Made by a program: the position numbers and the translations under genes | Origin: a virus | Lineage: Duplodnaviria; Heunggongvirae; Uroviricota; Caudoviricetes | Strand: one strand, 5' to 3' | IMG/VR virus record: IMGVR_UViG_3300032318_002198 | Length of the DNA: 64,000 nucleotides | Notes under the pieces: generated by a model | What the model was told of the DNA's origin: nothing | What the model saw: only the letters and a program-made list of their open reading frames with translations | Databases searched by the model: none | Part shown: positions 14,280 through 54,352 of the stretch, in pieces | Layout: each line of letters opens with the position of its first letter | How positions within the stretch are numbered: the stretch's first letter is position 1

Positions 14280-14925
14280 GCAAATATGATCTTCTATCTC
14301 GGTGACATCTACAATATCCTAGTTGTTTGTCTAAATATCCAATGTCAATATTATTTAATTCCATTCTTACACAATAGTCATAGTCCTGAACATGGTTAAT
14401 CCCTTCGGCAAAACTACCCACAATTTCATAGACTTCTTTTTTATATATGAAACACATTCCTTGTGACCATCTATTTTTTATAAATGCGTTAGTAAAATAA
14501 TCTTCTTTAGATGCTACAACTTTAGTTCCGTCCGGAAACAAATAATAGAAACTACTGTATATAAAACTTTTATTAGAAGATTCTATACAATTGATTAATT
14601 CTTCAAAGCAGTTAGGTGAATATATGTTATCACTAGTTATCCACGAAATAAATTTATGATTGTTACTTAATGCGGCAGTATGTCCAGAATTTAAAGCAGA
14701 GCCAATAAATTTATTAGATTCATGTCTAATATAGTTAATTTTTATTTCAGGATGACCGGAAATAAATTCTTTAATTATAGATACAGAGTTATCTGTAGAT
14801 GCGTCATCGACTATGTATAAAGTAAAATCTTTATAAGTTTGATTTTTTATACTGTCTAGTAATTCTAATATATACTCTTCATAATTGTAATGAGGTAAAA
14901 TTATGGCTAATTTTGATGTATTCAT
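14224..14925 (-). CDS. Glycosyltransferase family 2
   Basis: LAIILPHYNYEEYILELLDSIKNQTYKDFTLYIVDDASTDNS, a canonical GT2 N-terminus. Confidence 0.75.
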   Translation of the reverse strand: MNTSKLAIILPHYNYEEYILELLDSIKNQTYKDFTLYIVDDASTDNSVSIIKEFISGHPEIKINYIRHESNKFIGSALNSGHTAALSNNHKFISWITSDNIYSPNCFEELINCIESSNKSFIYSSFYYLFPDGTKVVASKEDYFTNAFIKNRWSQGMCFIYKKEVYEIVGSFAEGINHVQDYDYCVRMELNNIDIGYLDKQLGYCRCHRDRRSYLHVAEIDLQREELYKRYGI

Positions 14926-16239
14926 TTATTTGTTTATTATTAATTTAAACCTAATATCCGGTCCATTCGGTTCGTTGGGGATCTTAACAGCTTCTTGTAC
15001 CGTAATATTAATGTCGTCCCAGTTATATATTTTTCCATTAACATACAAAGGTTTTGTTGAATCAAAATAATCAAAAGTCCTAGTTGTTAGCGGTAATTTA
15101 TGAGTAGGATCTGTCCAGAAATTATCAGATCCTGCATAAGGAGAATCAATATTGATTACAGCTCCGTTACAGCATACTCTATATATTTCTCTTAAAAACG
15201 GAATAAAGTTTTCTTTGGAAATATGTTCTAGTACATGATGCATTCTTATTTCGGTTACTGTATTATTGGCAAAAGGCCATGGAAATATTTCTAAATCATG
15301 TTTAACATCGCATACTGTGTTACCACTGTCAACATTGACCCATCCCTGAAGATACTCGGTGCCGCATCCTAAATTAAGTTTTTTCATTTTTATTTTATTA
15401 ATAATTTGTATTAAACTTTCGACATATCTTTTATAGGTTAAACCTTCCGTAGAACTTCTTCTACTACGTATCGGTTTTAAAATGTTTTCTAAAATATTAA
15501 TCAATCCGTTTAGATCGTTTGGTTTAAAAACATAATCAACCGGAAAATCGCCAACGAATCCAACATCGGCGCTAATAATTTCTTTTCCGCACGACAATGC
15601 TTCTAAAATAATCATTGGACCTCCTTCCCATAATGAAGGCACTAAAATATAATCAGTGTCATGAATTTGTGCTGGATATAATGAATATTCTTCATCGGTA
15701 AAATATTCAACTTCGACATTTTTAGATTTTAATTTATCTACAACAGCATCCCAATCTTTGCCAACAAATTTAAATCTAAAATTTTCAACAATTGGATCGT
15801 CTACTAGATCTAACATAAAATGAAAGCCCTTGCCTTCGTATTTGCCACGTTGAAATATTCCTATTTTAGGTTTGTATTGAGTAAATTTAGTGTTTACCTC
15901 TGCCGGAAAAAGTACAGACATTTTATTTTCATCAAAGATTGATTTAAATTTTTCATAATATCTGGAACACATATGAATTATATAGTCTAAACTTAAACAA
16001 TTTTTATTAACAGTTTCTATAGAATCTAAATCCATATGCGTAAAAAATCCAATATCTATGGTTTTAGATTTTTGAACGAAACAATTTTGTATATCTACAT
16101 ATATGTTACAATCGACGTCATCGGATGATTGATTAGACAATCTAAAATCATATCCTTGATTTTTACCTTCGTTAACAATACGCTCGGCAATTTTTTGCAA
16201 GATCCAACCGCTGTGAACGGTTACTATATTAATAACCAT
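14926..16239 (-). CDS. Bifunctional glycosyltransferase (GT-B C-terminal-half-like) fused to a SAM methyltransferase domain
   Basis: VPSLWEGGPMIILEALSCGKEIIS (GT4-type) is followed by LNLGCGTEYLQGWVNVD (methyltransferase motif I). Confidence 0.55.
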   Translation of the reverse strand: MVINIVTVHSGWILQKIAERIVNEGKNQGYDFRLSNQSSDDVDCNIYVDIQNCFVQKSKTIDIGFFTHMDLDSIETVNKNCLSLDYIIHMCSRYYEKFKSIFDENKMSVLFPAEVNTKFTQYKPKIGIFQRGKYEGKGFHFMLDLVDDPIVENFRFKFVGKDWDAVVDKLKSKNVEVEYFTDEEYSLYPAQIHDTDYILVPSLWEGGPMIILEALSCGKEIISADVGFVGDFPVDYVFKPNDLNGLINILENILKPIRSRRSSTEGLTYKRYVESLIQIINKIKMKKLNLGCGTEYLQGWVNVDSGNTVCDVKHDLEIFPWPFANNTVTEIRMHHVLEHISKENFIPFLREIYRVCCNGAVINIDSPYAGSDNFWTDPTHKLPLTTRTFDYFDSTKPLYVNGKIYNWDDINITVQEAVKIPNEPNGPDIRFKLIINK

Positions 16240-16250
16240 TTAATTTATAC

Positions 16251-17327
16251 CTAGTTGATGTGGTTGGATAATAATATATTCAACACAGTTTGTGATACAT
16301 TTTTTTTGATATATTCCTCGGGTACATTCCAATTGTTCGGTTTATTATCGATAATAAAGTTATAACACCTAAGAATACTATCAACATTTAATCCACTAAT
16401 AATATTAGATCCACACCAAACTGTTTCAGGACGTTCCGTACTATCTCTAATCGTTATAGTCGGTATGTTAAAAATACACATTTCCTCTTGTACTGTTCCG
16501 CTATCAGAAATAGCCATCTTACTATTCTTTTCTAAATTAATAAAATCAAAAAAGCCAAACGGTTCTGACACAATTATATTTTTTGATTGCAAATTTAATT
16601 TTTCCATTCTGTTTTTAGTTCTTGGGTGACAACTAAAAACAACTTTATTATCTTTTGAAATAACTTCTAACGCAGAGAAAATGTTTTTTAACCGTTGATC
16701 AACATCAACATTTTCAGATCGATGTGCCGTTACAATTACATATTGAGCTTTTTCTAAATTTAGTTCATTCAAAATATTAGAAGAATCTATTTGATCTCGG
16801 TAATATTCGATTACTTCATTTATGGGGTTTCCGACTACAAAAATTTTATCATTCGCTATACCTTCTCTTAATAAATTTTGTCGACTTGTTTCAGTATAAG
16901 GCATATTGATCGATGAAATAGTATCGATAATTTTTCTATTCTTTTCCTCGGGAACTTTGAGATCGTAACATCTATTACCCGCTTCCATGTGATAGACCGG
17001 TACTCCTAAACGTTCGCATACGATTGCTGCTAAACTTGAGTTAGTGTCACCCAGTATTAATACTTTATCTGGTTTAAAGGAATTAATAGCATTTTCTACA
17101 CCCACGAATATCTTACCTAACTGTTCAGATAAAGAATTTGATTTACTGTCAATTATAAAATCACACTGTCGAACTCCTAACTGTGAGAAAAATATATCAT
17201 TAAGATTAGCATCATAATTTTGTCCTGTGTGAAGGATTTTATGATTCACATATCTGTCTAATAAAGGTATAATTCTCGACAGTCTGATAATTTCGGGTCT
17301 TGTTCCTAAAATAGTTAAAACATTCAT
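16251..17327 (-). CDS. wecB: UDP-N-acetylglucosamine 2-epimerase (non-hydrolysing, WecB-like)
   Basis: LTILGTRPEIIRLS, HTGQNYD, LGDTNSSLA and HMEAGNR are all in the WecB/MnaA order. Confidence 0.8.
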   Translation of the reverse strand: MNVLTILGTRPEIIRLSRIIPLLDRYVNHKILHTGQNYDANLNDIFFSQLGVRQCDFIIDSKSNSLSEQLGKIFVGVENAINSFKPDKVLILGDTNSSLAAIVCERLGVPVYHMEAGNRCYDLKVPEEKNRKIIDTISSINMPYTETSRQNLLREGIANDKIFVVGNPINEVIEYYRDQIDSSNILNELNLEKAQYVIVTAHRSENVDVDQRLKNIFSALEVISKDNKVVFSCHPRTKNRMEKLNLQSKNIIVSEPFGFFDFINLEKNSKMAISDSGTVQEEMCIFNIPTITIRDSTERPETVWCGSNIISGLNVDSILRCYNFIIDNKPNNWNVPEEYIKKNVSQTVLNILLSNHIN

Positions 17328-17367
17328 AAAGTTCTTTCTTTAATTATTATTATACACAATTCGGTTA

Positions 17368-18984
17368 TCAAAGGTCAATAAGTTTCCTGTTAATTAATGA
17401 TGGTATTCTACTTTTAATAGTTTCGGGTAAGTTAGATGTAGGTATGTTTATTTTTTCTAATGGTTGTTCATTAAAATGAACTTTTTTATTTTTAATTGAT
17501 GTCTCTAATAATAATTGATTTTCCTTGAACTGTTCATGCATGTTAGATTCACAAACGCTGTTAAGTTTTTGCACTACAGCATCTAATCCTCCAAGATAAG
17601 AAAAATGCCATCCACCGTGTACATGCAATCTATTACCTTTAAATCTTTGATTTCTAATTTCTTGAGGAGTTGTTCCATCTAACAATATATGCCATCTTGT
17701 TAAATGACTACCACACCATTTATAATTGGCTTTGTAATTTAGATAATAATAATACATGTCCTGTTCCAGACCAAATGTCAATTGAACATTATTATTATGA
17801 TAAAATTTAATAGCTTCGTGATTAGGAATCTCATCTAAATCAGATATCATTACTATATCATCACGATTTAAATCTAATCTATCTAACCCTACTCTAATGT
17901 TATTTCTTTGATAATGTTCATTATCCCAAGAACCATACGCAGTAGATATAGGATTGTCAACAATTACATGTACAATTTTATGTAAGTATTTTGAAAAACG
18001 GTGTTTATTCTTTTCAAAGTATAATTCTTTTTTATTACCCAATTGAGTGAATCTTGCTTCGACTAATACAAAATGATCTATTATAGGATCAAGATATTCT
18101 AACCGTATCTCCAAAAGATCCAATTCGTATTCTAATCCAAACATGAAACAATCCACTATTTGATCTTTGAAATTTGATCGATTTTTATCAAAAACCTTGT
18201 GTTCATTAAAGTTACCTATTTGTGTTTCATTTTGAATAGATTCCAATAATACTCTATTTTTTTCTACTAACGAAGGTAATAAATCCGTAGGGAATTGACT
18301 AGTATGATATTGATGTACACAAAGAGGCGATTCGACAAATTTAACATTTAAATTCTTTCGTTTAATTCTGATAACAAATTCGTCATCATCATAACTCACT
18401 CCGTTTGAAAATCTTTCATCAAATCCATTTAATTCTGTTAAATCAAATCTAGTAATTGCAGACATAAAATGATACATCACCGGTCTATATGTTGGATGAT
18501 TATACCAAGCAGAGATACTAGGATCAACTACTCCTACATTGTTAAATGTAACGACACCGCCGCCCTTCATTATGTTTGTCTCGTGCTCATTTGTAGCATA
18601 ACAATTAAAAGAAAAATATTCTCCAATGTTTAAATTATTTTCAACGTATGAGATAATATCGCCTATGTGACAACATTCAGGATTTTGAATAATTATCTTA
18701 TCACCTTTAGCGTGTCTAAATCCAGTATTGTAAACCACACATGGATTATAATATGATCTTTCGTCATATAGATCGGACATTTTTATTACGGTGATAGGTA
18801 ATTGAGGGTAATTCATTTTACCGATCAATGGATCGTGTACTTGATCACTGAAATCATCTACGATAATTATTTCATAGTCAGTGGATTTTGTGTAACGTAT
18901 GGTTTCTAAGGTATATAGTAAATGTGGCAATCTATTTTTATATGCCATGACGATTGAAATCATCTTAAATCCTTTGCAAAGCAA
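17368..18984 (-). CDS. Two-domain glycosyltransferase: N-terminal GT2 plus C-terminal GT-A-like domain (GT17/MGAT3-like?)
   Basis: ISIVMAYKNRLPHLLYTLETI (GT2 start). The C-terminal half has DCFMFGLEYELDLLEIRLEYLDPIIDHFVLVEA...ISDLDEIP. Confidence 0.55.
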   Translation of the reverse strand: MLCKGFKMISIVMAYKNRLPHLLYTLETIRYTKSTDYEIIIVDDFSDQVHDPLIGKMNYPQLPITVIKMSDLYDERSYYNPCVVYNTGFRHAKGDKIIIQNPECCHIGDIISYVENNLNIGEYFSFNCYATNEHETNIMKGGGVVTFNNVGVVDPSISAWYNHPTYRPVMYHFMSAITRFDLTELNGFDERFSNGVSYDDDEFVIRIKRKNLNVKFVESPLCVHQYHTSQFPTDLLPSLVEKNRVLLESIQNETQIGNFNEHKVFDKNRSNFKDQIVDCFMFGLEYELDLLEIRLEYLDPIIDHFVLVEARFTQLGNKKELYFEKNKHRFSKYLHKIVHVIVDNPISTAYGSWDNEHYQRNNIRVGLDRLDLNRDDIVMISDLDEIPNHEAIKFYHNNNVQLTFGLEQDMYYYYLNYKANYKWCGSHLTRWHILLDGTTPQEIRNQRFKGNRLHVHGGWHFSYLGGLDAVVQKLNSVCESNMHEQFKENQLLLETSIKNKKVHFNEQPLEKINIPTSNLPETIKSRIPSLINRKLIDL

Positions 18985-33629: not shown

Positions 33630-34063
33630 AGAAATTTTTTTTAGACACTGAATTTAACGGCTTCGGCGGAAAACTGATATCTATGGCGATAGTACCAGAA
33701 GATCGTAACATAAGAGAATTTTATGTAGAATTAGAGATAAAGGAACAACTACATCCATGGGTCAAAGAAAATGTAGTACCGCATTTAATTTTAGTCCCAC
33801 AGTCTATGAATTCGTTTCAACAATCTCTTGCACAATATCTTTGGGAAATAGGAGAGTGTGTTATTGTTGCGGACTGGCCAGATGACATTAAATATTTTTG
33901 CGAGTCATTGATCACTGGCCCTGGCATGTCTATTAATTTGATGCATAATATCAAATTTGAATTGAATTTTAGTATTCAATATGAATCTTCGGTACCACAT
34001 AATGCATTGCATGATGCTAGGGCAATACGTGATTCTTACTTAAAAAATATACAAAATGGATAA
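33626..34063 (+). CDS. DEDDh 3'-5' exonuclease (DnaQ/oligoribonuclease-like)
   Basis: Exo I motif FLDTEFNGFGG, Exo III motif HNALHDARA. Confidence 0.7.
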   Translation: MKKFFLDTEFNGFGGKLISMAIVPEDRNIREFYVELEIKEQLHPWVKENVVPHLILVPQSMNSFQQSLAQYLWEIGECVIVADWPDDIKYFCESLITGPGMSINLMHNIKFELNFSIQYESSVPHNALHDARAIRDSYLKNIQNG

Positions 34064-34382
34064 GATATTTAAAAAAGTAGATCGTAGAACTCCGGGACAC
34101 GAAAATTGGAAATATTATATTCCGAGACCCAAAACTCATTATATGCCAACATATACTTTGTATGAAAGCAAACAAACGTTCTTTGAATGGAGGAAATGGT
34201 GTACCGAAACTTGGGGACATAGTAAAGAATTCAATGATTGGTTAGAAGACTTAGCACAATCTCCTGAGCAAAGAAGTTGTTTTAACGAGCATTGGTGTTA
34301 TCAAAACAATGAATATCATTGTAGAATATTCTTACGTACAGACAAAGATTTGAGCATTTTTTTACTTAAATGGGCGAGTTAA
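34056..34382 (+). CDS. LRWS-array family member (divergent, ends LLKWAS)
   Basis: The start overlaps the exonuclease stop. The next start is embedded in the KWA codons (AAATGGGCG). Confidence 0.5.
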   Translation: MDKIFKKVDRRTPGHENWKYYIPRPKTHYMPTYTLYESKQTFFEWRKWCTETWGHSKEFNDWLEDLAQSPEQRSCFNEHWCYQNNEYHCRIFLRTDKDLSIFLLKWAS

Positions 34383-34603
34383 AATTTATCGATATTAAAA
34401 TAAACGACTTCATGGAATTATTACATGAATTAAAATCAAACGGATTGATACTTAATCAAGACTTCGAATGGCGTTATCAACCTACTAAAATTATCGAAAC
34501 TCACGACCATAAATTTGAAGTAGAAGAAAAATATTGTATTATTAAATTTTATAATTTAAAACATCTCACCTTTTATTCTTTAAAATGGAACAAGTATCTA
34601 TAA
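34370..34603 (+). CDS. LRWS-array family member (divergent, ends SLKWNKYL)
   Basis: Array position; K-W motif near the C-terminus. Confidence 0.45.
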   Translation: MGELKFIDIKINDFMELLHELKSNGLILNQDFEWRYQPTKIIETHDHKFEVEEKYCIIKFYNLKHLTFYSLKWNKYL

Positions 34604-34815
34604 GCGGTTACGTACAACCATGGCATAGTGTTAAATTACAGTTTTATTCCTTGGGAAGAATATCCCCCGCACACTGGTGTGATAAACAAAACTGGCAGGA
34701 AAATGTAGATTATATTATCTTGACAGAAAAACGAGTAATTAACTACTTGTTCAAAAATGCAAAACATGCTACAATGTTTAGACTGTATTGGTCTTCCTAC
34801 ATAAAGGATTCGTAA
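34585..34815 (+). CDS. LRWS-array family member (divergent, ends MFRLYWSSYIKDS)
   Basis: MFRLYWS retains the family core. Confidence 0.45.
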   Translation: MEQVSISGYVQPWHSVKLQFYSLGRISPAHWCDKQNWQENVDYIILTEKRVINYLFKNAKHATMFRLYWSSYIKDS

Positions 34816-35108
34816 TGAATAATTCTGCAATTAACAATGCAATTACTGCTGTTGCTCAAGCATTAGATAACATTGACCTTGGTCCGAACAAAATCCAGAT
34901 GAAAACTGGAAAGGCAAAAAGTTGGCTCGGAGAATATCATTGGGCTAGTCTTGCAAAAGATCCCGATGCCGACGATAATACTGATCCTGCCATTGAATGG
35001 TGTTTGGAACATTTTGGCAAAAGTGGTGCTAGGTGGTATCCTTATAATGGAAAATTCTTTTTCAAAGACGAACGAGATATGAGTATGTTTATTCTAAGAT
35101 GGTCATGA
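34815..35108 (+). CDS. LRWS-array family member (ends KDERDMSMFILRWS)
   Basis: TAATG overlap start; canonical C-terminus. Confidence 0.6.
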   Translation: MNNSAINNAITAVAQALDNIDLGPNKIQMKTGKAKSWLGEYHWASLAKDPDADDNTDPAIEWCLEHFGKSGARWYPYNGKFFFKDERDMSMFILRWS

Positions 35109-35389
35109 CATATGATATCCCCGATACTACGCTAGTAGACGACTATATTCTAATAAAACTGTGGAACGATTATATCGTTAATCATCCAGACCTTAATCTC
35201 ATAGGTAAACGACTTGTTCGAGGTTACTATACAAAACATATTCACAAGTTTGGTTATAATATATTTGTAAAAGAATTTCAAGATTGGTTATGGAATCAAG
35301 GTGGAACAGTAATACTAAAAGATAAAAAGCAGTATATTCAATTTACTGATCCACAACAGGCAACTGTATTTCTGTTGAGGTGGGCATGA
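35099..35389 (+). CDS. LRWS-array family member (ends QQATVFLLRWA)
   Basis: ATGGTCATGA junction. Confidence 0.6.
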   Translation: MVMTYDIPDTTLVDDYILIKLWNDYIVNHPDLNLIGKRLVRGYYTKHIHKFGYNIFVKEFQDWLWNQGGTVILKDKKQYIQFTDPQQATVFLLRWA

Positions 35390-35622
35390 AACGATCGACA
35401 ATTCATAAAATTTCATTCGGTCGAAATCGATATCACCAACATATTGAAATGTATAATTGGTGTGAAAGGCGTTTCGGTTACGGCAAATGGCTTACGGGCA
35501 CACCAAACAGTTGGGTAGGATTGGAAAATCTAAATTGGTGTGTTGATAGTATGTTTGGTAATACTACATTTGCTTTCAAAGATCCAAAACATTTATCTAT
35601 GTTTTTACTGAGGTGGTCATGA
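35386..35622 (+). CDS. LRWS-array family member (ends KDPKHLSMFLLRWS)
   Basis: GGGCATGA junction. Confidence 0.6.
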   Translation: MKRSTIHKISFGRNRYHQHIEMYNWCERRFGYGKWLTGTPNSWVGLENLNWCVDSMFGNTTFAFKDPKHLSMFLLRWS

Positions 35623-35858
35623 TACCAAAATTTAAGAAGGCTCAACACCCCGATCTTTGCGATAGATGGGAAATCTACTTCGATATGTGGGATCCAAATC
35701 GTAAATTTGATTTAGTAATGGAATGGTGTTGGACCACATTTGGTCGCCCAAATATTAAGTTTGTAACCGGAGTAAAAAGCGTTTGGGATTCTCACGGGAG
35801 ATTCATATATTTTTATGACGAAAAGTGTGTTACAATGTATATGTTGAGGTGGTCATGA
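35619..35858 (+). CDS. LRWS-array family member (ends DEKCVTMYMLRWS)
   Basis: GAGGTGGTCATGA junction. Confidence 0.6.
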   Translation: MIPKFKKAQHPDLCDRWEIYFDMWDPNRKFDLVMEWCWTTFGRPNIKFVTGVKSVWDSHGRFIYFYDEKCVTMYMLRWS

Positions 35859-36220
35859 GAACTAGTATTTGGTATCGCACTAACCAACATCAACCTGATT
35901 CATCAGGTTACTACCTGTCTTATCGTGGTTGGGGGCTGGGCGGCAAAGCAGACGGTGATAGTACGTATGGATATTTGTGGTACAGTAAGAAAACTAATAA
36001 ATGGTATGAATATCAAGGAGATGAACGATCCATGCATCCAAGTACCTGTATGGTTTATTATTGGACTGATGCTACACCAGATGACTGGGTAGACAACGAG
36101 CAAGTAGGAAGCCAGTATCAAAACATCTCCAAAAATCCTACATTAAAAAGTGCTTGGCAAGATGTGTTAGCTGCTATTGAAAAATTTAAAATAATCGAAG
36201 CATTAGTAAAGCAAGCGTAA
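35855..36220 (+). CDS. Trp/Tyr-rich hypothetical protein embedded in the array (no LRWS tail)
   Basis: Starts at the canonical junction ATG but ends ALVKQA. Confidence 0.5.
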   Translation: MRTSIWYRTNQHQPDSSGYYLSYRGWGLGGKADGDSTYGYLWYSKKTNKWYEYQGDERSMHPSTCMVYYWTDATPDDWVDNEQVGSQYQNISKNPTLKSAWQDVLAAIEKFKIIEALVKQA

Positions 36221-36221
36221 T

Positions 36222-36448
36222 ATGGGATACAAACTTTCTATTGAACGCCATGAAAACAACGGAATTAATGCCGATGCTTTTGGTAATTTCATCATGCATT
36301 ATATCGACCTTTGGGAGCTAGAAGGCTCCGGCTTCGACAGGAAGATTGACAACGTTCTAAAAACATACGGTGCCAAAGATATATTGGGCGAGCCAGCTAT
36401 AGAGTTTGAAACTTAACAACAGGCACTATTTTTATTGAGGTGGTCATG
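36222..36448 (+). pseudogene. LRWS-array member interrupted by an in-frame TAA (36414-36416). Readthrough would add QQALFLLRWS.
   Basis: ...IEFET*QQALFLLRWS* in one frame, comparable to the intact ...FTDPQQATVFLLRWA of 35099-35389. Confidence 0.5.
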
Positions 36449-36649
36449 AGAGTAGATATAAGGCCCTACTGGAAAAATCTAACTAATTGGTATTGGGACG
36501 AAAGTCAAAACAATAGGGGCGGATTTAGCATTTGGGAAATACTAGAAGAAGACTACGGGGCCCGCTGTGTCCATGTGAGCGGCCGGGGATTTCTCATGGA
36601 GTTCCCAGATGAAAAAGCGTATATGTTGTTTGTGTTGAGGTGGTCATGA
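36446..36649 (+). CDS. LRWS-array family member (ends DEKAYMLFVLRWS)
   Basis: GAGGTGGTCATGA junction. Confidence 0.6.
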   Translation: MRVDIRPYWKNLTNWYWDESQNNRGGFSIWEILEEDYGARCVHVSGRGFLMEFPDEKAYMLFVLRWS

Positions 36650-36900
36650 AAATTACAAAATATTGGGAAATTTCTGCCAATAACATAAGTGCAGATGATT
36701 ATGATTTTTATTAAAATTAAATTGTGATGTTGAAACTATTGAAGCAGAAATAACAACTCTTACTACTGTTACTGGATTCACTTATAAGGTCATAACTAGT
36801 CCGCAAAAAATAATAATCAAAACCGCTTGCGAAAAACAAGAAATTATGTTATTATTAAAGTACGATTCTAAGATATTCCTCACTAATCGAGAAATTACAT

Positions 36901-37303
36901 ATGAATTTGATTGAAAAATATCGTGCTTGGAAAGAAAAACAATTTCTAAAAAAAACACGGCTGTGAGACTCGCGAACAATACAATTATAAGTACGACCCT
37001 GATATAAACGATCGTGCTACTAGAATAAAAGATTATTACCATGGATATCCCTATTTTTATTGTTTCGAAGATCGTGAACATGAAATATATTATTGGGATT
37101 TAGGAATCGACGGGGTTTATGTAACCAATAAATCGTGTAAAGAGAATCTAACAGGTATGTTTCGTTTTGACTTTCACCGTGCTACAAAGGCACCATCTAC
37201 TGCCAATGAATGGGTAACAAATGAGCTTGGCGGTGGCGACTATATTTTCTTTGCATGCAAAGATCCAAAAGATTATACACTGTTTTTGTTGAAGTGGTCA
37301 TGA
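36901..37303 (+). pseudogene. LRWS-array member disrupted by a frameshift in an A8 homopolymer (36948-36955). ATG at 36901 gives MNLIEKYRAWKEKQFLKKTRL*, and the +1 frame continues ...CETREQY...DYTLFLLKWS.
   Basis: The family C-terminus FLLKWS plus the canonical GTGGTCATGA junction occur in the +1 frame with no in-frame ATG. A poly-A tract sits at the frame switch. Confidence 0.5.
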
Positions 37304-37545
37304 AAATTACACAAGATCAAATCAAGAATCAAATTAATAATTGTTTCGAAGCATTTGACCCTCGGTGGCTAGAATCTTTCGGAACAGCCCAGCAAAAAAA
37401 TAGTTTCAAACAGCATCTTGAAAAAACTGCTGGAATAAAAGTTGAAATAGAAAACGATTATAGAGAGAGAATGTCATACAGACTTGCAAGTATTGAAGTT
37501 GTTGATGAATCCAAATTAACTTGGTGGATCCTGAAATGGTCATGA
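37300..37545 (+). CDS. LRWS-array family member (ends ESKLTWWILKWS)
   Basis: Junction ATG. Confidence 0.55.
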   Translation: MKITQDQIKNQINNCFEAFDPRWLESFGTAQQKNSFKQHLEKTAGIKVEIENDYRERMSYRLASIEVVDESKLTWWILKWS

Positions 37546-37862
37546 CAATTAGCATACCAAAACTTAAAAATATTGATCCCGTACTTGTGGCACCTAGGAT
37601 ACAATCTTATCCTGTTAAATCTCCAAAACATTGGCCATGGCAGTATTATTTACGAGAGTTAGAAGTAGAATACAACAATTGGCGGCGTACTTATACTACA
37701 AACGAAAGAGGTATGAAGGATGTAAATGATATTATGCAGGACCTGTATCCTGGACCATATCGTGTTGTAGAAAAGTATCTATCAGATAGAATGGTTATTG
37801 GATTTGGTTTAGAATTTGATGATCCTAAAGAAGAAACTTTTTGGCTATTGAAAAACTCATGA
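37536..37862 (+). CDS. LRWS-array family member (ends DDPKEETFWLLKNS)
   Basis: AAATGGTCATGA junction. Confidence 0.55.
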   Translation: MVMTISIPKLKNIDPVLVAPRIQSYPVKSPKHWPWQYYLRELEVEYNNWRRTYTTNERGMKDVNDIMQDLYPGPYRVVEKYLSDRMVIGFGLEFDDPKEETFWLLKNS

Positions 37863-38083
37863 ATACTACAATTAAATTGCCTGAGTCTCCCATAACAGTA
37901 TGGGATAACAAAATCCTGGTAGACTACCCATTTATATATCAATTAAACAGAGTTGGTATTTATATTGACGCATTAACATTTGCAAGAGAAAACTTTAATA
38001 CAGGTTCATATACTTGGAAAGGCACGAAGTTCTTTTTTAAGAATGAAAAAGATGCTATTTGGTTCGCATTGAGGTGGTCATGA
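37859..38083 (+). CDS. LRWS-array family member (ends NEKDAIWFALRWS)
   Basis: TCATGA junction. Confidence 0.6.
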   Translation: MNTTIKLPESPITVWDNKILVDYPFIYQLNRVGIYIDALTFARENFNTGSYTWKGTKFFFKNEKDAIWFALRWS

Positions 38084-38337
38084 AAGTAAGTCGTAGAACA
38101 ATTAATTCAGCATTTCATAACGCATCAAACACGTTTAGGAAACAATGGAATTCCACATGTTATGCCGGATACACTACTGCAGAAATAAAAAAACAATTTT
38201 GGAAAGACTTTAGTAAAGCACATAATATCAATATTACCATCAATGAATTTAAATCGGATTATTATCCTGTTATCAACGACACTATAGAATTTAATAACGA
38301 GCAAGATTATCTTATGTTTTTGTTGAGGTGGTCATGA
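38080..38337 (+). CDS. LRWS-array family member (ends NEQDYLMFLLRWS)
   Basis: GAGGTGGTCATGA junction. Confidence 0.6.
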   Translation: MKVSRRTINSAFHNASNTFRKQWNSTCYAGYTTAEIKKQFWKDFSKAHNINITINEFKSDYYPVINDTIEFNNEQDYLMFLLRWS

Positions 38338-38516
38338 AATTTGAAAAGAGAAGTAACGGATGGTTTATGACAAATATACAAGGTGATACCATTGATATTT
38401 ACATCTGGTGTCAAAAATTGTATGGGCCGTGCGGCTCACGGTGGGAACACTACTCAGGAAATTTCATGTTTCAAAAAGAATCTGACATGACAATGTTTGT
38501 ATTGAAGTGGGCATGA
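38334..38516 (+). CDS. LRWS-array family member (ends KESDMTMFVLKWA)
   Basis: GAGGTGGTCATGA junction. Confidence 0.6.
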   Translation: MKFEKRSNGWFMTNIQGDTIDIYIWCQKLYGPCGSRWEHYSGNFMFQKESDMTMFVLKWA

Positions 38517-38722
38517 TTAAGAAACAATATCACCGCCATGTCGCCGATCCTTGTTACTTTAATAATTTCTTGCAATCATTGGGCGTTGACGTTACATTAG
38601 ATAAGTTAAACGTTAAACTAACACTATATAAAGCTACTATTGCCAAGTCAAAGTTTAATAAAATAAATGTTAAATGGAATGATCCTAAATTGTATGCTTA
38701 TTTTATTTTGAGATGGTCATGA
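38513..38722 (+). CDS. LRWS-array family member (ends NDPKLYAYFILRWS)
   Basis: GTGGGCATGA junction. Confidence 0.6.
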   Translation: MIKKQYHRHVADPCYFNNFLQSLGVDVTLDKLNVKLTLYKATIAKSKFNKINVKWNDPKLYAYFILRWS

Positions 38723-38940
38723 AAACAATTAATGTATCAGCAGAAAAATGGTATAACTATTGGACACAGGCGGCTTATGTACATGGTGAATGTTACCGAG
38801 GCAGCATAGCAATGTATAAGATGCTAGAAGAAGATTATTCAATTATCAGATGGCGAGTAGGTCACTATGACGAAAATAACGTCACGATAACTTATACCGA
38901 CGAAAAGTTAATCACAAAATTTATCTTGCAATATGCATGA
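38719..38940 (+). CDS. LRWS-array family member, last in the array (ends DEKLITKFILQYA)
   Basis: AGATGGTCATGA junction. Followed by a 9-codon stub starting at GCATGA. Confidence 0.55.
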   Translation: MKTINVSAEKWYNYWTQAAYVHGECYRGSIAMYKMLEEDYSIIRWRVGHYDENNVTITYTDEKLITKFILQYA

Positions 38941-39036
38941 AAGTTAATCTTCAACTTGTTCTGTAGCAATGGTCATCCGACAGCATTGGTATTTTAACGA
39001 AATAGGCCATCAATTTTAAATGTTAAGGTTAATTAA

Positions 39037-39423
39037 ATGAATAAAAATCATGTACATTGTTTCGAAAGAGAATTTGAAGCAACAGTAACACAGTCTACTA
39101 ACAGAAGAATGCAAATAATTGAACCGTATACTCTTGATTATAAGTATCCTGGCATTACACTTCAAACAAAGTCAGTACCTGCTGTTGAAATTGTAATGCC
39201 CGAGGATCAATTTTATAATCTTCTTGAAGAAGTAGACAAAAAAAGCGATGAGAATATACATTGGTTAACCTATAAACAATATCAGAATATATACGGAACA
39301 GAATGGCCTTATCGATTTTCTGATATGATGACAAGAGAAGCACTAGAAGAAAAACTACGTAATTCAAATGCTGCACTCAAAAAAGCATGGGATTATTATC
39401 AACTGCTGTTAAAAATGTCATGA
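39037..39423 (+). CDS. Hypothetical protein
   Basis: 128 aa ORF. Confidence 0.45.
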   Translation: MNKNHVHCFEREFEATVTQSTNRRMQIIEPYTLDYKYPGITLQTKSVPAVEIVMPEDQFYNLLEEVDKKSDENIHWLTYKQYQNIYGTEWPYRFSDMMTREALEEKLRNSNAALKKAWDYYQLLLKMS

Positions 39424-39607
39424 TTAGTTTAGAAATTCCATATGAAAAATACTTCGCCGTTTGTGATTGATGTAAAAAGAATATCAGCGAACAAAAATAT
39501 TACTTACATCATAGATGTGGTGGCGATGGCTGGGAATTAATAGATCGTAAAACAATTATGATAAAAGATGAGAAAAAAGCATCGATGCTGATTTTAACAT
39601 GTTTGAC

Positions 39608-39636
39608 TTGACTATTTCCAAAAAAAAGCGTACAAT
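39608..39636 (+). promoter_or_regulatory. Sigma70-like promoter (TTGACT, 17 nt spacer, TACAAT)
   Basis: TTGACT at 39608-39613 and TACAAT at 39631-39636. Confidence 0.5.
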
Positions 39637-39714
39637 AGATGTTGTGTGCTATTAAAAAACATTTCGGAATTGAACAATGAGTCTTAATCCCTTGATACTA
39701 TTAGGAATTGAATA

Positions 39715-40035
39715 ATGACTTTGTTTAGACACATCAACAGTCTTGTTATGAACAATCAATTCTTAGAGAGCGAGGCTAACATGACACTGAGCAAATACAC
39801 ATTTGAGCGAACTGAACTCCGAACTCTACAAAATATGTGTGAGGGAGACAATGAGAAATTTCTGAACCTACTTGCTGATATGATCGGCGAGCGTGATGAA
39901 CAGATTCACCATCTTAAACAACAAATAGCCGATGACAGTTGGGACATTAACCCAGATAACATGGGTGGTGCATTCACACAAGACGAAATTGATGATGCGG
40001 TAATGGCGTTAAAAGAACATTTGGGAGTAAAATGA
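39715..40035 (+). CDS. Hypothetical protein
   Basis: 106 aa ORF. Confidence 0.45.
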   Translation: MTLFRHINSLVMNNQFLESEANMTLSKYTFERTELRTLQNMCEGDNEKFLNLLADMIGERDEQIHHLKQQIADDSWDINPDNMGGAFTQDEIDDAVMALKEHLGVK

Positions 40036-40223
40036 TGAAAGAAGGAATTGACGAGTTCTTCAAAAAATCATGGAACGTAACCGGAACTAAATTCACACCA
40101 TCTCATTTGGAATGGTTAAGTTGGCTTGGTCAACCAATGCTGTATGACGGTGGGTTATGCGTGAATCGTAACCCAGAAGAACACTTTGTTAGTGATCAGC
40201 GCCGGGGGAGTTTGATGATATGA
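40032..40223 (+). CDS. Hypothetical protein
   Basis: 63 aa ORF. Confidence 0.4.
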   Translation: MMKEGIDEFFKKSWNVTGTKFTPSHLEWLSWLGQPMLYDGGLCVNRNPEEHFVSDQRRGSLMI

Positions 40224-40435
40224 ACGAACGAATCCAACAACTTGCTGAACAAGCAGGTTTGTATGATGAAAAATCTCCCGACGAGGTACCGGAGTTCACT
40301 GCTTGTTTTGAGAAGTTTGCCGAGTTGATTATTCGGGAATGTGCGGTGTATGTCAAAAATTCAAATTGCTTTACTTACGCTAGTCAAGCAGACTTATGTG
40401 CTGAAAGAATGAAAGAACACTTCGGGGTTGAATAG
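40220..40435 (+). CDS. MNERI-family small protein
   Basis: ATGAACGAACGAAT start; KFAELIIRECAVYV...HFGVE. Confidence 0.6.
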   Translation: MNERIQQLAEQAGLYDEKSPDEVPEFTACFEKFAELIIRECAVYVKNSNCFTYASQADLCAERMKEHFGVE

Positions 40436-40689
40436 TGAACGAAGCAATGAAAAATTGTCCATTCTGCGGACATATAGTAGACATGGATAACCCAGATACT
40501 CTATACCCTAACGGCACGGGATGGGCGATTCGCTCCAATGGAATGATTAGTTATCATTCGTTCCGTGATGTGCCAAAAGAACAATGGTGTTACAGCATTC
40601 ATTGTGTAACAACATCAGGCGGATGCGGAGTTGAAATAAGTGGTAACTCTGTACAAGAATGTATTGAAAAATGGAATAGACGTTCATGA
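40435..40689 (+). CDS. Lar-family restriction-alleviation protein (zinc ribbon)
   Basis: N-terminal NCPFCGH...; C-terminal C..C...VQECIEKWNRRS matches the Lar pattern CPFCG...C..C....A..aWNrR. Confidence 0.55.
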   Translation: MNEAMKNCPFCGHIVDMDNPDTLYPNGTGWAIRSNGMISYHSFRDVPKEQWCYSIHCVTTSGGCGVEISGNSVQECIEKWNRRS

Positions 40690-40907
40690 ACCTAGAACAA
40701 ATAATTATCAAAAACAAATACAATCAAATTCAAAAAAAACTCAAGAGCGCACAGTCTGAGTTAGAACGATTGCAGGGAACTTGTGAGCATCCAAATGCTG
40801 AAGTAAAGCATAAGGGTGATAGGGGAAACTATGATCCTTCAATGGATCGATACTGGATTGAATACAATTGCCCTGACTGCGGCAAATTTTGGACAGATGA
40901 AGAATGA
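40686..40907 (+). CDS. Zn-ribbon small protein, paralogue B (C-terminal CPDCGKFW)
   Basis: About 80% nucleotide identity to 29367-29585. Confidence 0.55.
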   Translation: MNLEQIIIKNKYNQIQKKLKSAQSELERLQGTCEHPNAEVKHKGDRGNYDPSMDRYWIEYNCPDCGKFWTDEE

Positions 40908-41341
40908 ACGCTTGTAGTCATTTGCCTAATGCGGCACATATTGACCGTATTATTGAGTCTGTAAAATCACATACTAAAGTTTGGGATGCGGCTTATAATG
41001 CGGCTTGGGAGGCGGCTCAGATTGCGGCTCGGGATGAGGCTTATAATGTGGCTCGGGGTGAGGCTTGGTTTGCGGCTAGTGATGCGGCTCGGAATGCGGC
41101 TTATTATGCGGCTCGGGTCGTGGCTTCTGGTGCGGCTCGGGGTCCGGCCTGGCTTGCGGCTTCTGGTGCAGCTTGGGGTGCGATTCTAGCACTTATCGCA
41201 TACGATGATGCTGCCAAATACCTGAACATGTCTGTTGATCAATTAAAGATGTGGGCAATACTTAGTGAAGAACCAGCCGCAATTCTACTACTACCAGCAG
41301 TGATTGCATTTGAAAAAATTAGTGTATTGGAGTTGGCATGA
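40904..41341 (+). CDS. Ala-rich protein with 4-residue periodic repeats (x-A-A-[RWY])
   Basis: AAYNAAWEAAQIAARDEAYNVARGEAWFAASDAARNAAYYAARVVASGAARGPAWLAASGAAWGA. The underlying 12-nt unit NNNGCGGCTYGG repeats about 16 times. Its start reuses the MNERI-family ATGAACG. Confidence 0.5.
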   Translation: MNACSHLPNAAHIDRIIESVKSHTKVWDAAYNAAWEAAQIAARDEAYNVARGEAWFAASDAARNAAYYAARVVASGAARGPAWLAASGAAWGAILALIAYDDAAKYLNMSVDQLKMWAILSEEPAAILLLPAVIAFEKISVLELA

Positions 41342-41598
41342 ACGAACGAATTAAAGAACTATATCTCAAAGCACACAGCACTCGCTACTACGATGGTGAT
41401 CCTGCACTTGATGGAAATCCTCCTACCGTATATTGGGGTGGTGAGCGTAGTGCTGAAAAATTCGCCGAGTTGATCCTTACTGAAGTCACAGATATTCTTG
41501 CTACTTATCGTATGAAGGCTATATTTGTAGACGGTATTGAATATAATTGTCAACACCCTATCTACGCAATACGAAAACATTTTGGAGTTGAAGAATGA
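41338..41598 (+). CDS. MNERI-family small protein
   Basis: ATGAACGAACGAAT start; KFAELILTEV...HFGVEE. Confidence 0.6.
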   Translation: MNERIKELYLKAHSTRYYDGDPALDGNPPTVYWGGERSAEKFAELILTEVTDILATYRMKAIFVDGIEYNCQHPIYAIRKHFGVEE

Positions 41599-42981: not shown

Positions 42982-43308
42982 ATGAAATTCAGTGAACTAA
43001 AAAGATTAGTTGATCTATACTACCGAGACGACTACGAAGATCCAGAAGTGGTTATCCAAATCAAACTACCATACTCCACTGTCGGTGGTCAACCTACTGT
43101 GAAAGTAAAGAATATCCAAATGGGCTTTGATTGGGACCAAGGTAAATTCATCATAACACCAGAAGAAGACCTAACACCAAGTGATCGTGACTTTGCAAAG
43201 CAAATGAAGGATATGCAAGAGCGTGCTGGATGGGCAGACTACGAAAATCGTAATCTTAAAGCCGAGATATCAAAACTAAAGAGAAAACTAAATAATGAAA
43301 AAGTTTGA
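42982..43308 (+). CDS. Hypothetical protein
   Basis: 108 aa ORF; AAGGAG RBS. Confidence 0.5.
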   Translation: MKFSELKRLVDLYYRDDYEDPEVVIQIKLPYSTVGGQPTVKVKNIQMGFDWDQGKFIITPEEDLTPSDRDFAKQMKDMQERAGWADYENRNLKAEISKLKRKLNNEKV

Positions 43309-43918
43309 TCCGTTTGAAACTTTAACATTTGGTGTGCAACCTTGTTCGTCGTTGGTACATACCGAAGACTATAAGATCTATGAATTCCTCAACATCAAAA
43401 AATATAATGCAATAATTGCAGGTGGTTGTGCATTATCGTGGTATCAACATCAACCAGTAGGATTAAAAGATATTGACCTTTGGTTCGATAATCAAGATCA
43501 TCTTAATGAGATGTCTAGATTTTTGTCCGATTATTCATTTAATCGTCGAGCATTTCAAAGTGCAAATGCAGAAACATGGCAATGTACAGCCGATAACAAT
43601 AAAACATATCGAATACAATTAATCAAGAATTACTTCTACACCGATATACACGAGGTTATTAACAACTTTGATATTAGTGTATGTCAGATTGCAACGGACG
43701 GACATACATGGTATCACAGTGATCAATTTTGTGCTGACTTAAAAGAAAAACGTCTAAGATTTATTAAAAATACTCCAGGCAGTTTAAAAAGGTTGATAAA
43801 ATATTGGGGCTATGGTTTTCACCCCGATGATAACACTTTACATATGATTATTAATAATTCTCAAATAAAATGGGATTTTTCTGCGGAAACTGAAGAGGAG
43901 TATGCCGATGCGTTCTGA
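43295..43918 (+). CDS. Hypothetical protein
   Basis: 207 aa ORF. Confidence 0.5.
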   Translation: MKKFDPFETLTFGVQPCSSLVHTEDYKIYEFLNIKKYNAIIAGGCALSWYQHQPVGLKDIDLWFDNQDHLNEMSRFLSDYSFNRRAFQSANAETWQCTADNNKTYRIQLIKNYFYTDIHEVINNFDISVCQIATDGHTWYHSDQFCADLKEKRLRFIKNTPGSLKRLIKYWGYGFHPDDNTLHMIINNSQIKWDFSAETEEEYADAF

Positions 43919-51439: not shown

Positions 51440-54352
51440 ATGACAACCCGTGCTCCATTATCACAAGTTACACAAGATCCTGGATTAACTAATCCTACCG
51501 AACAGGAAACAATATTTGTTGTAGTCGATTCAGGTGTTGAACAGAAACTAACTGTTGCACGAGCTCGCCAATTATTAAACACACAAGGTATTCAAGGTGC
51601 TAGTGGTGTACAAGGACGTCAAGGTTTCCAAGGACCACAAGGGTTTCAAGGACGTCAAGGTTTTCAAGGTGCTCAAGGTTTGCAAGGAGCATCTGGTGTT
51701 CAAGGATTTACTGGATTTCAAGGTTTCCAAGGTGCGCAGGGTATTCAAGGTCGTCAAGGATTTACTGGTACCCAGGGTGTTGGCGGGCCAGGTATACAAG
51801 GATTTCCAGGTACACAAGGTTTTCAAGGTGCTCAGGGTTTTGGTGGTGCAGGTATTCAAGGTGCTCAAGGTGCCCAAGGTTTCCAAGGATTTACAGGTCA
51901 TCAAGGTTTCCAAGGACATCAAGGTATGCAGGGTTCTCAGGGATTCCAAGGATTCCAAGGTGCTCAGGGAGTGGGCGGGGCACCGACCGGTCCTCAAGGT
52001 TTTCAAGGTTTTGATGGTCGCCAAGGACAGCTAGGAAGACAAGGTTTCCAAGGTGCTGATGGTATACAAGGAAGACAAGGTTTCCAAGGTGCTGATGGTA
52101 TACAAGGAGCTCAAGGATTCGGAGGCACAGGAATTCAAGGTGCTCAAGGTGCTATAGGTACTCAAGGTTTCCAAGGTGCTCAGGGTATACAAGGATTGCA
52201 AGGATTTCAAGGTGCTCAAGGTGCACCATCGGCAGGCGGTGTACAAGGTGCGCAAGGACCTCAAGGTATTCAAGGACCTCAAGGTTTCCAAGGTAATTCA
52301 GGTTTTCAAGGCGCTCAAGGTTTCCAAGGAAGTCAAGGAAATCTAGGAAATCGAGGTACTCAAGGATTTGATGGATTTCAAGGTATTCAAGGAGCTCAGG
52401 GATTACAAGGTGCTCAGGGTGTTGGTGGACTTGGTATACAAGGATTTCCAGGTACACAAGGTTTTCAAGGTGCGCAAGGAAATCAAGGTTTCCAAGGTCA
52501 TCAAGGATTCCAAGGCGCTCAAGGTATGGGTGGAGCACCAACGGGACCACAAGGTTTCCAGGGTGCGCAGGGATTCCAGGGCAATCAAGGATTCCAAGGT
52601 GCGCAAGGATTCGGTGGCGTTGGTTTCCAAGGTCAACCTGGTTTCCAAGGCGAAACAGGTTTCCAAGGTTTCCAAGGCAATCAAGGTTTCCAAGGTGCTC
52701 AAGGTATAGGCGGTGCACCGACCGGTCCTCAAGGTTTTCAAGGCCATCAAGGTTTTCAAGGACGTCAAGGTTTCCAAGGTGCCCAAGGTGTCGGTGGGCC
52801 TGGTATACAAGGATTTCCAGGTACACAAGGTATTCAAGGTGCGCAAGGATTCGGTGGACCAGGTATTCAAGGTCCGCAAGGTATTCAAGGACCGCAAGGT
52901 ATTCAAGGACGTCAAGGTTTCCAAGGTGCGCAGGGTGTCGGCGGGCCAGGTATTCAAGGATTTCCAGGCACACAAGGTTTCCAGGGTGCTCAAGGACCGC
53001 AAGGTATTCAAGGTCGCCAAGGTTTTCAAGGTTTCCAAGGTGTTCAAGGCGCTCAAGGTAATATAGGTGGTCCAGGTACACAAGGTTTCCAAGGTCACCA
53101 AGGATTTCAAGGTAATCAAGGTAATCAAGGTTCTATAGGATTAAGAGGTATTCAAGGTTCTCAAGGTGCCCAAGGTTTCCAAGGTGCTCAAGGTATTCAA
53201 GGTTTTCAAGGAGCGCAAGGTTTTGCTGGAGTCGGGAACCAAGGTGTTCAAGGCGCTCAAGGTATACAAGGACATCAGGGATTCCAAGGTGCTCAAGGCC
53301 CTAGAGGTCAACAAGGTATACAGGGTCCTGAAGGTATACAAGGGCCTCAAGGATTTACTGGCAATCAAGGCTTCGTGGGAGATGCCGGTGCTCAAGGGCC
53401 CCAAGGATATCAAGGATATCAAGGTATTCAAGGTGCGCAAGGTTTACAAGGTGCTCGAGGAACTCAAGGATTAGATGGCGTTCAAGGTTCATCAGGTGTG
53501 ATAGGAATACAAGGTGCTCAAGGTTCTCAAGGACAGGTAGGCCCGCAAGGATTACCTGGTATTCAAGGTTCTCAAGGACGAGATGGATACCAAGGACCAC
53601 AAGGTTTTACCGGACGACAAGGTGTTCAAGGAGCACCGGGTTTCCAAGGAGAACCAGGTTTCCAAGGAAATCAAGGTTTTGCTGGACTAGGTGCTCAAGG
53701 TTTCCAAGGTGCTCCTGGAATTCTAGGAGTACAAGGACGAGATGGATTCCAAGGTCAACCAGGTTTCCAAGGTAATCCAGGTTTCCAAGGTGCTCCAGGT
53801 CCAAACGGTATTCCCGGTAGTCCAGGTCCAAACGGTATTCCCGGTAGTCCAGGTCCAAACGGTATTCCCGGTAGTCCAGGTCCAAACGGTATTCCCGGTA
53901 GTCCAGGTCCAAACGGTAGTCCAGGTCCAAACGGTACCCCCGGAACATTGAGTTTAGCAAATGCTGTAGTGTATACCAACGGCTCAGCGACCGCACAAAC
54001 CACAACCAGTCTCCGTTATGACGGATCTACCTTAAGTGTTACTGGAGCAATTGTTGCAACCGGTGACATAACTGCATTTTCAGACGAAAGACTAAAGACC
54101 AATATTACAACTATTGACGATGCCTTAACTAAACTTGATCAGATTAATGGATATTTGTATACTAATTCAACTACTGGTAAACGTCACACTGGTGTTATTG
54201 CACAAGAAATTATTAAAGTATTACCAGAAGCAGTAATGAAAAATAACAATGATTATTATTCAGTTGCATACGGTAATTTAATTGGTTTATTAATACAAGG
54301 TATTAAGGAACTCAATACAGAAGTAAATTCATTAAAGAAAAAATTACAGTAA
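51440..54352 (+). CDS. Collagen-like (G-X-Y triple-helix repeat) tail fibre with C-terminal S74 intramolecular-chaperone autoproteolytic domain
   Basis: About 750 residues of uninterrupted GXY (GFQGAQG...). The C-terminus [29 protein letters not shown]...[15 protein letters not shown] matches peptidase_S74. Confidence 0.85.
53795..53920 (+). repeat. Four perfect tandem copies of a 27-nt unit (CCAGGTCCAAACGGTATTCCCGGTAGT, encoding PGPNGIPGS) plus a partial copy, inside the collagen-like gene
   Basis: Exact nucleotide identity across all four units. Confidence 0.85.

Follow-up and report, generated by a model that had tools for sequence, protein, structure and literature searches.

Phage genomes are usually thought to hold very few pseudogenes. 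Multigene families with birth-and-death evolution are known from other viruses, namely the MGF360/505 families of African swine fever virus and the terminal families of poxviruses. Programmed frameshifts, a different way in which one protein can be encoded in two frames, are known from the tail assembly chaperone G/GT, from dnaX and prfB, and from A-run insertion-sequence transposases.

In T4-type phages, hyperplastic regions are reported to be shuffled through PeSL motifs (PMC2839356, PMC4122927). In a cyanophage, a spontaneous laboratory deletion of an "ORFanage" region is reported to be linked to host adaptation (PMC4503421).

The locus described here is an array of small genes in a large phage. 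Three neighbouring members (m09, m11, and m12) are most probably young pseudogenes, each broken by one recent, lineage-specific point mutation, and the same holds for a further member (m21), along with the deletion of a whole cassette. The array occupies the following positions in the window, i.e. the whole stretch of 64,000 nt that was analysed.

34056-38940, + strand: tandem array of about 19 small genes (ORF list, three-frame view, junction census, and family alignment)
39037-39611, + strand: two extra array members that follow the main array, giving a total of about 21 members

In the family alignment, most members share the C-terminus hh-L-[RK]-W-[SA] followed by the stop codon. The stop of one member overlaps the ATG of the next (ATGA) and is preceded by GAGGTGG, i.e. 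the junction is a coding 3' end (the L-R-W-S codons) that doubles as a Shine-Dalgarno sequence, combined with the ATGA stop/start overlap. With up to 2 mismatches allowed, the junction GAGGTGGTCATGA is present in 12 copies in the window (0.75 expected by chance), and a repeated 15-mer form of it, TTGAGGTGGTCATGA, marks the points at which strain differences begin and end. Within the window, identity between paralogues reaches 47% at most and is mostly confined to the C-terminal 17-40 residues (BLASTP); the paralogues are old. A consensus scan shows no excess of promoter-like sites (32 vs 32.4 expected) or of terminator-like sites (3 vs 3.6 expected).

The coding density of the window is 93.5%. 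The window comes from a large phage, with a source contig of the 0.2-1 Mb class, and elsewhere encodes a collagen-like tail fibre, a tail-collar-like protein, glycosyltransferases, UvdE, and PTPS. We read the array as an accessory, host-interaction region. Searches of ten array members against Pfam and PHROGs gave nothing above noise, Pfam gave nothing for all 95 homologues of the 133-residue protein described below, and a profile search of PDB sequences gave no match. In 50,697 phage records, megablast found no match to 36100-37400. A tail-fibre protein gave only distant partial matches there, so the phage has no cultured relative in that collection.

The comparison with relatives covers several levels of divergence. 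The sister contigs L006 (ERZ27272098), L007 (SRR27419734), L008 (3300034103), and L011 (ERZ28594509) show 97.5-98.4% nucleotide identity to the window; a 12,642-nt contig of 3300059473 has the same gene layout, known from gene calls alone, and the sister strains come from at least five samples in all. In the sister strains the genes follow in the order of 76, 80, 67, 89, 133, and 81 codons and all are intact, the 76-, 89-, and 133-residue proteins being the counterparts of m09, m11, and m12, respectively. A more distant relative, L009 (JACCDX011643262.1), was found by a metagenome contig scan with m13; the viral contig scan with the same member returned no locus. Still more distant are five full-length m12 orthologues in IMG/VR contigs (L001-L005, 56-67% identity), which serve as outgroups at that gene and are intact there. 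Pipelines differ in their gene calls on identical DNA, so the evidence for each lesion is based on DNA identity and on exact products, not on absent gene calls. A candidate further pseudogene in L014/L016 (a 32-residue vs a 75-residue call) was rejected on these grounds, as the DNA is identical in all four contigs and only the gene calling differs.

The first of the broken members is interrupted by a nonsense codon.

36222-36416, + strand: m09, cut short after 64 codons by a premature TAA (translation)
36414-36416, + strand: the nonsense TAA of m09, in frame with the ATG at 36222 (pairwise DNA alignment)
36417-36449, + strand: orphaned tail of m09, QQALFLLRWS and a TGA stop, in which the Shine-Dalgarno-like GAGGTGG and the ATGA that starts the next gene are retained
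36446-36649, + strand: m10, intact, 67 codons, located between broken genes

The first-pass annotation of this DNA had described a reading frame that starts at 36222, stops at the TAA, and resumes with QQALFLLRWS and the junction; translation confirms it. The stop of the tail lies inside a perfect GAGGTGGTCATGA junction at 36437-49. The ending FTDPQQATVFLLRWA, quoted there as that of an intact paralogue, does belong to the gene 35105-35389, but BLASTP finds no wider similarity between this gene and the one at 36222. The proper counterpart is the intact m09 of L007, with 76 residues (MGYKLS...EFETEQQALFFILRWS). At the site of the premature stop both L007 and L009 have GAA (Glu), i.e. the TAA results from a G to T substitution. 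The exact 64-residue product of m09 is also recorded on a 12,518-nt contig of ERZ21844512. The segment equivalent to the missing last 11 residues is, in a confident model of the 133-residue relative, a terminal helix placed after the last strand, and the truncated m09 protein is probably unstable. The dead tail of m09 retains GAGGTGG and the ATG, with which m10 should still be able to start translation.

The next two lesions are single-base changes in homopolymer runs, in two genes that overlap.

36646-36714, + strand: head of m11, 22 codons and a TAA that is reached after the frameshift
36705-36709, + strand: T5 run in m11, one T lost, shift to the -1 frame
36705-36914, + strand: body of m11, open for 69 codons in the -1 frame, the first 47 of them without a start, ending in ...EIMLLLKYDSKIFLTNREITYEFD and a stop
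36901-36966, + strand: head of m12, 21 codons and then TGA (36964-66), with its ATG within the end of m11
36948-36955, + strand: A8 run in m12, one A gained, shift to the +1 frame
36950-37303, + strand: body of m12, open for 117 codons in the +1 frame up to DYTLFLLKWS and the junction

Joined at the T5 run, the head and body of m11 give an 89-residue protein identical to that of the sister strain; the same N-terminus begins the 89-residue protein in L006, L007, and L008. The run is T6 in these three contigs as well as in L011 and L009. Among the uncovered + strand regions of the 64 kb, the body of m11 is the one long open frame that lacks a start. A scan for start-less frames in uncovered regions flagged five in total, four of them on the minus strand, and of the five only the m11 body resembles a broken gene.

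The m12 frameshift within the A8 run, with DYTLFLLKWS and the junction in the +1 frame, had already been described from the reading frame at 36901 and is upheld. Removal of one A from the run restores an ORF of 133 codons. A search of a large protein database with the repaired 133-residue protein gave 97 homologues, nearly all of them full-length, the best being P0001 (133 residues, 94% identical), through which the sister contigs were reached. The run is A7 in L006, L007, L008, L011, and L009, while the distant orthologues have no A run and no shift at this site (CTAGCAGCACAT in L001-L004 and TTAAAGAAGCAC in L005). The body of m12 was masked in the start-less-frame scan by a spurious 99-codon antisense ORF at 36782-37081 that overlies it.

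Between the T5 and A8 lesions lie 243 nt; their length changes offset each other, and nothing else differs from the sister strain across 36630-36980. The possibility that they compensate each other within one ORF was rejected, since m11 and m12 are two separate genes and the first frame meets a TAA at 36712. The ATG of m12 is placed 14 nt before m11 ends, and its Shine-Dalgarno-like sequence is weak. With such a start, the m11 frameshift may have uncoupled m12 from translation and silenced it first, relaxing selection on it. As a result of both shifts, about 590 nt (36715-37299) would now be untranslated.

The fourth lesion is located in one of the two members beyond the main array, which is separated from the latter by a short spacer with an ORF of its own.

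38937-38966, + strand: 9-codon ORF and a TAG, after the last array member, in the 97-nt spacer before the next gene
39420-39611, + strand: m21, with an in-frame TGA at 39468-39470 (three-frame view, tblastn to L009, and DNA alignment)

The m21 frame reads MISLEIPYEKYFAVCD, a stop, and then CKKNISEQ...LILTCLT. L009, which is 92% identical in nucleotides to the window over this stretch, has TGG (Trp) at the site of the TGA, within the W-C motif of the family, and the window differs by a G to A substitution. Nothing indicates that the 9-codon ORF is a gene remnant: it resembles none of the members, and the GCATGA with which the preceding gene ends supplies its ATG. The whole 97-nt spacer, including the TAG of the stub, is also about 95% identical in L009.

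The first-pass annotation had counted two disrupted members and two junction-led stubs. Both disruptions are present in the sequence as described; the lesions are, though, more numerous and extend to m11 and m21. Both stubs exist as well, at coordinates one base off (36646-36714 and 38937-38966), and neither is what it was taken for: the 22-codon stub is no junction remnant but the N-terminus of the third disrupted gene, m11, and the 9-codon stub follows automatically from a gene that ends in GCATGA, in a spacer shared with L009.

All four lesion sites are intact in L009 (GAA, T6, A7, and TGG). As both the sister strains and the outgroups (L001-L005, L009, and the 97 database homologues) are intact, the lesions are derived and specific to the lineage of the window, and on the aligned DNA the intact state is shown to be ancestral for all four genes. 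The comparison of orthologous positions in related phages, which had been proposed as a check, thus yielded intact genes in sisters and distant relatives alike. The pseudogene interpretation, one of three offered at that stage, is the one that these data favour, every lesion having an intact counterpart either in the ~98% identical contigs or in L009. Loss of function in the four members would follow from the disrupted frames. Over 614 codons the dN/dS against the sister strain is ~0.63, calculated from small counts, which suggests that the array members are under weak constraint. The divergence from the sister strain is patchy (0 differences in m11 and m13, 4-6% in m10 and m15), a pattern that fits recombination between strains.

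Cassette turnover is visible at the same place, next to m09.

36435-36449, + strand: a TTGAGGTGGTCATGA junction, scar of the missing cassette (BLAST coordinates and junction sequences)

In L007 two exact copies of TTGAGGTGGTCATGA flank an 80-codon gene (MNKEKFIV...) located between the 76- and 67-codon genes. The window lacks this gene and holds the single-copy junction expected from recombination between the two copies. The cassette is also present in L009 (3715-3957), which makes its loss in the lineage of the window the simpler reading. Other breakpoints between close relatives coincide with junctions too, at 36428-49, 36635-49, 38083, 35373-92, and 35581-632; L011 diverges from the window upstream of 36635-49, and L006 and L013 diverge downstream of 38083. 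Where the window has four cassettes, gene calls place ten in the 12,642-nt sister contig, and L009 has about 50 tiled members vs about 21 in the window.

Cassettes also move between diverged phages. Members m05, m06, and m07 have 91-98% nucleotide identity to their counterparts in L014-L022, whereas the backbone genes in L014-L017 are only 70-75% identical to the window. The cassette order there is m05-m07-m06, vs m05-m06-m07 in the window, with the breakpoints at junctions. Among 5.8 billion proteins, m07 forms a single cluster at 90% identity. The data do not support recent duplication as the origin of new members, as no paralogue pair is more than 47% identical. Of the birth and death that had been suggested for the array, death and cassette turnover are therefore borne out, and birth by duplication is not.

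Taken together, the array would be a dispensable, weakly constrained accessory region that changes in two ways. Whole cassettes may be gained, lost, and reordered by recombination at the 15-20-nt junctions present at each gene boundary, while single members would decay by point mutation, especially at A/T homopolymers, which arise from the AT-rich, lysine-rich coding sequence.

It is unlikely that the four lesions and the cassette deletion are selected OFF states and not the result of neutral decay. If they were, the A7 and T6 runs could let a phage population silence, and perhaps re-activate, single cassettes, and a host defence system that recognises the proteins of the contiguous m09-m12 block might be the reason for its being switched off in this strain. 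Of the four lesions, three might be partly suppressible to give the exact ancestral protein (by slippage at T5 and A8, and by reading of UGA as Trp), which might provide low, tunable expression.

Reversible phase variation, with A7 and T6 as contingency sites that switch cassettes off and on, is a quite improbable account of the two frameshifts. The runs do stay A7 and T6 in the sister strains and in L009, both tract lengths occur in nature, and a third frameshift of the A7/A8 type is found in L009 itself (L009 6385-6405, GATGAAAAAAATACTTGA), where one extra A would give ...VDEKKYLIFLLRWA and a stop. The tracts are, however, short (5-8 nt), and typical contingency tracts are longer than that. 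In the contigs, every OFF allele is on the window-type background and every ON allele on a sister background. The same strain also carries two non-reversible nonsense mutations and the cassette deletion, a combination that fits decay better.

The chance that the genes are intact in the real phage, and that the T5, the A8, and perhaps the stops are consensus errors, is likewise small. Both frameshifts are -1/+1 homopolymer changes, the classic signature of a sequencing error, and as two indels that cancel in length they are the only differences from the sister across 350 nt. Against this stands the separately assembled L010 (Logan assembly, run ERR2848567), whose 3,982 nt are 100% identical to window 36396-40377 across all four lesions. 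The 12,518-nt contig of ERZ21844512 carries, besides the exact truncated 64-residue product, an exact 48-residue internal-start product, although gene calls on this contig are soft evidence. The three assemblies with the lesions may derive from a single sample or read set; if they do, their agreement excludes an error of the assembler and leaves room for a systematic error in the reads. Two lesions of the four are base substitutions (G to T and G to A), the other two being single-base homopolymer changes. In addition, the window contains 41 homopolymer runs of at least 7 nt, among them 12 runs of 8, and the A8 at 36948 is the only one of these to which the whole-window frameshift scan pointed as gene-breaking; no other broken gene was indicated by that scan. 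The similar A-run frameshift in L009, which affects another gene in another phage, is a further argument against error. The homopolymer sequencing error raised in the first-pass annotation is thus an unlikely cause, given the exact match of L010 and the two substitutions.

Programmed recoding, i.e. read-through of the TAA and TGA together with -1/+1 ribosomal frameshifting or transcriptional slippage at T5 and A8, is very improbable. A runs cause both ribosome sliding and RNA polymerase slippage, and UGA is the leakiest stop, misread as Trp. A +1 slip on A AAA AAA (tRNA-Lys) or a -1 slip on T TTT T (tRNA-Phe) would give exactly the sister protein, and Trp, the ancestral residue at 39468, matches the misreading of UGA. 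A slippery sequence that allows re-pairing is necessary, not sufficient, for a programmed frameshift, and UAA, the stop in m09, usually terminates efficiently. None of the sites is conserved: the sister strains and all outgroups are in frame with a sense codon, and L001-L005 are without any A run. The RNA 3' of each site folds no better than shuffled sequence (z = -0.19, +0.35, and +1.05), and no adjacent in-frame stop of the prfB type or upstream Shine-Dalgarno-like stimulator is visible. The regulated readthrough or frameshifting that had been suggested earlier does not agree with orthologues that have neither stop nor shift, nor with the lack of downstream RNA structure. Some full-length protein might nevertheless be made through slippage or UGA read-through at a low level. 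A recoding of TGA as Trp is ruled out, since TGA is a functioning stop in more than 12 array genes.

With the four members regarded as pseudogenes, about one fifth of the members of one array are freshly broken while their ancestral state is kept in sister strains. This offers a clean natural snapshot of how accessory gene arrays turn over in large phages, with one short repeat acting as protein C-terminus, ribosome-binding site, and recombination site at once. For annotation, three pseudogenes should be placed in 36222-37303 and one at 39420-39611, and the short ORFs and the antisense ORF at 36782-37081 should not be treated as genes. Judged from the DNA, the four proteins appear dispensable for this strain, which would narrow what the family does.

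In general, the array is an ordinary, well-documented case of a known process, with no new mechanism or genetic code, and each of the described systems resembles it in part. As in bacterial contingency loci, a single-base change in a coding homopolymer turns a gene off; here the tracts are much shorter, and the contigs show one tract length per strain background. With programmed frameshifts the array shares a homopolymeric slippery run at which two frames of one protein meet. Programmed sites, in contrast, are conserved among orthologues and usually accompanied by stimulators, whereas the array genes have in-frame orthologues and no stimulator is apparent at the lesions. The cyanophage ORFanage is similar in that a block of small accessory phage genes is lost within a short evolutionary time; it differs from the present case, which consists of point lesions and one cassette deletion inferred from a comparison of metagenomic strains.

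The MGF360/505 and poxvirus families likewise consist of tandem divergent paralogues with strain-variable copy number, in which members are truncated or frameshifted, often at homopolymers. Unlike them, the array belongs to a bacteriophage, its genes overlap and are translationally coupled, recent duplicates are absent, and gain apparently occurs by cassette exchange and not by duplication. As in the T4-type PeSL system, clusters of small genes without assigned function vary by insertion, deletion, and replacement between near-identical phages, and a short conserved motif that recurs between genes is where the breakpoints are located. A PeSL combines an early promoter with a stem-loop terminator, whereas the junction here is a coding 3' end with a Shine-Dalgarno sequence and ATGA; and while the genes between PeSLs are unrelated, the cassettes of this array share a C-terminal protein module.

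The cassettes m05, m06 and m07 of the array (window 35373-35858) are 91-98% identical to cassettes at 6769-7773 of L014 and 1573-2577 of L015, two contigs of a phage whose backbone genes are just 70-75% identical to the window. Their order is also changed in that phage, to m05-m07-m06, and the sequences point to a recent exchange of these genes as cassettes between diverged phages. The breakpoints of the rearrangement coincide with the junctions. At m15 (37859-38083), the comparison with the sister strain L006 (1295-1519) gives 11 non-synonymous codon differences and 1 synonymous, for strains that are ~98% identical; the neighboring m11 and m13 show 0 differences between the same strains. Diversifying selection or a recombined cassette are both possible explanations of the non-synonymous excess at m15.

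In the more distant relative L009, the array member at 6217-6440 is frameshifted independently, at GATGAAAAAAATACTTGA (A7), and the ORF terminates in ...VDEKNT; with one added A it would read ...VDEKKYLIFLLRWA, followed by a canonical junction. The L009 orthologue of the 36222 gene (1799-2041) has lost its TGA, with TCATGC in place of TCATGA, and is extended by 6 codons (CASPKK), which, as read from the sequence, shows that the junctions themselves can decay.

Gene-call tables should not be taken as evidence of lesions, because identical DNA (L014 7946-8196 and L015 2750-3000) was called as a 75-residue gene by one pipeline, yet as a 32-residue gene by another. One reading frame that a gene caller could pick is very likely spurious:
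36782-37081, minus strand, antisense ORF of 99 codons overlapping the dead m11/m12 region

Immediately downstream, the array is followed by further genes:
39715-41598, second small-gene family
39715-40035, 40220-40435 and 41338-41598, members of this second family
40904-41341, alanine-rich protein of 145 residues with repeated AAxxAAxxAA-type units (…AARDEAYNVARGEAWFAASDAARNAAYYAARV…)

Several members of the second family begin with MNERI... and terminate in ...KEHFGVE, ...RKHFGVEE or ...KEHLGVK, and the family is also represented in L009 (12129-12407).

Other genes of the window are:
55-1365, TnpB / IS605 OrfB-type protein with OrfB_IS605, Cas12f1-like TNB and HTH domains, found here in a phage-like window
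11442-18984, minus strand, ORF block with two or more glycosyltransferase genes, at 14926-16239 and 17368-18984
51440-54352, collagen-repeat protein of 970 residues with a C-terminal Peptidase_S74 chaperone domain

With its collagen repeats and Peptidase_S74 domain, the last of these is probably a tail fibre.

About 1 kb past the array of L014, a gene (8734-9387) encodes a protein whose precomputed Pfam match is Gad2 (PF26128). In the window, the corresponding gene may be the ORF at 43295-43918, whose DNA match to L014 spans only part of its length and whose sole hit is a sub-threshold nucleotidyltransferase match (E = 6e-4). Gad2 is an anti-Gabija family, which may hint at this neighborhood being an anti-defence region.
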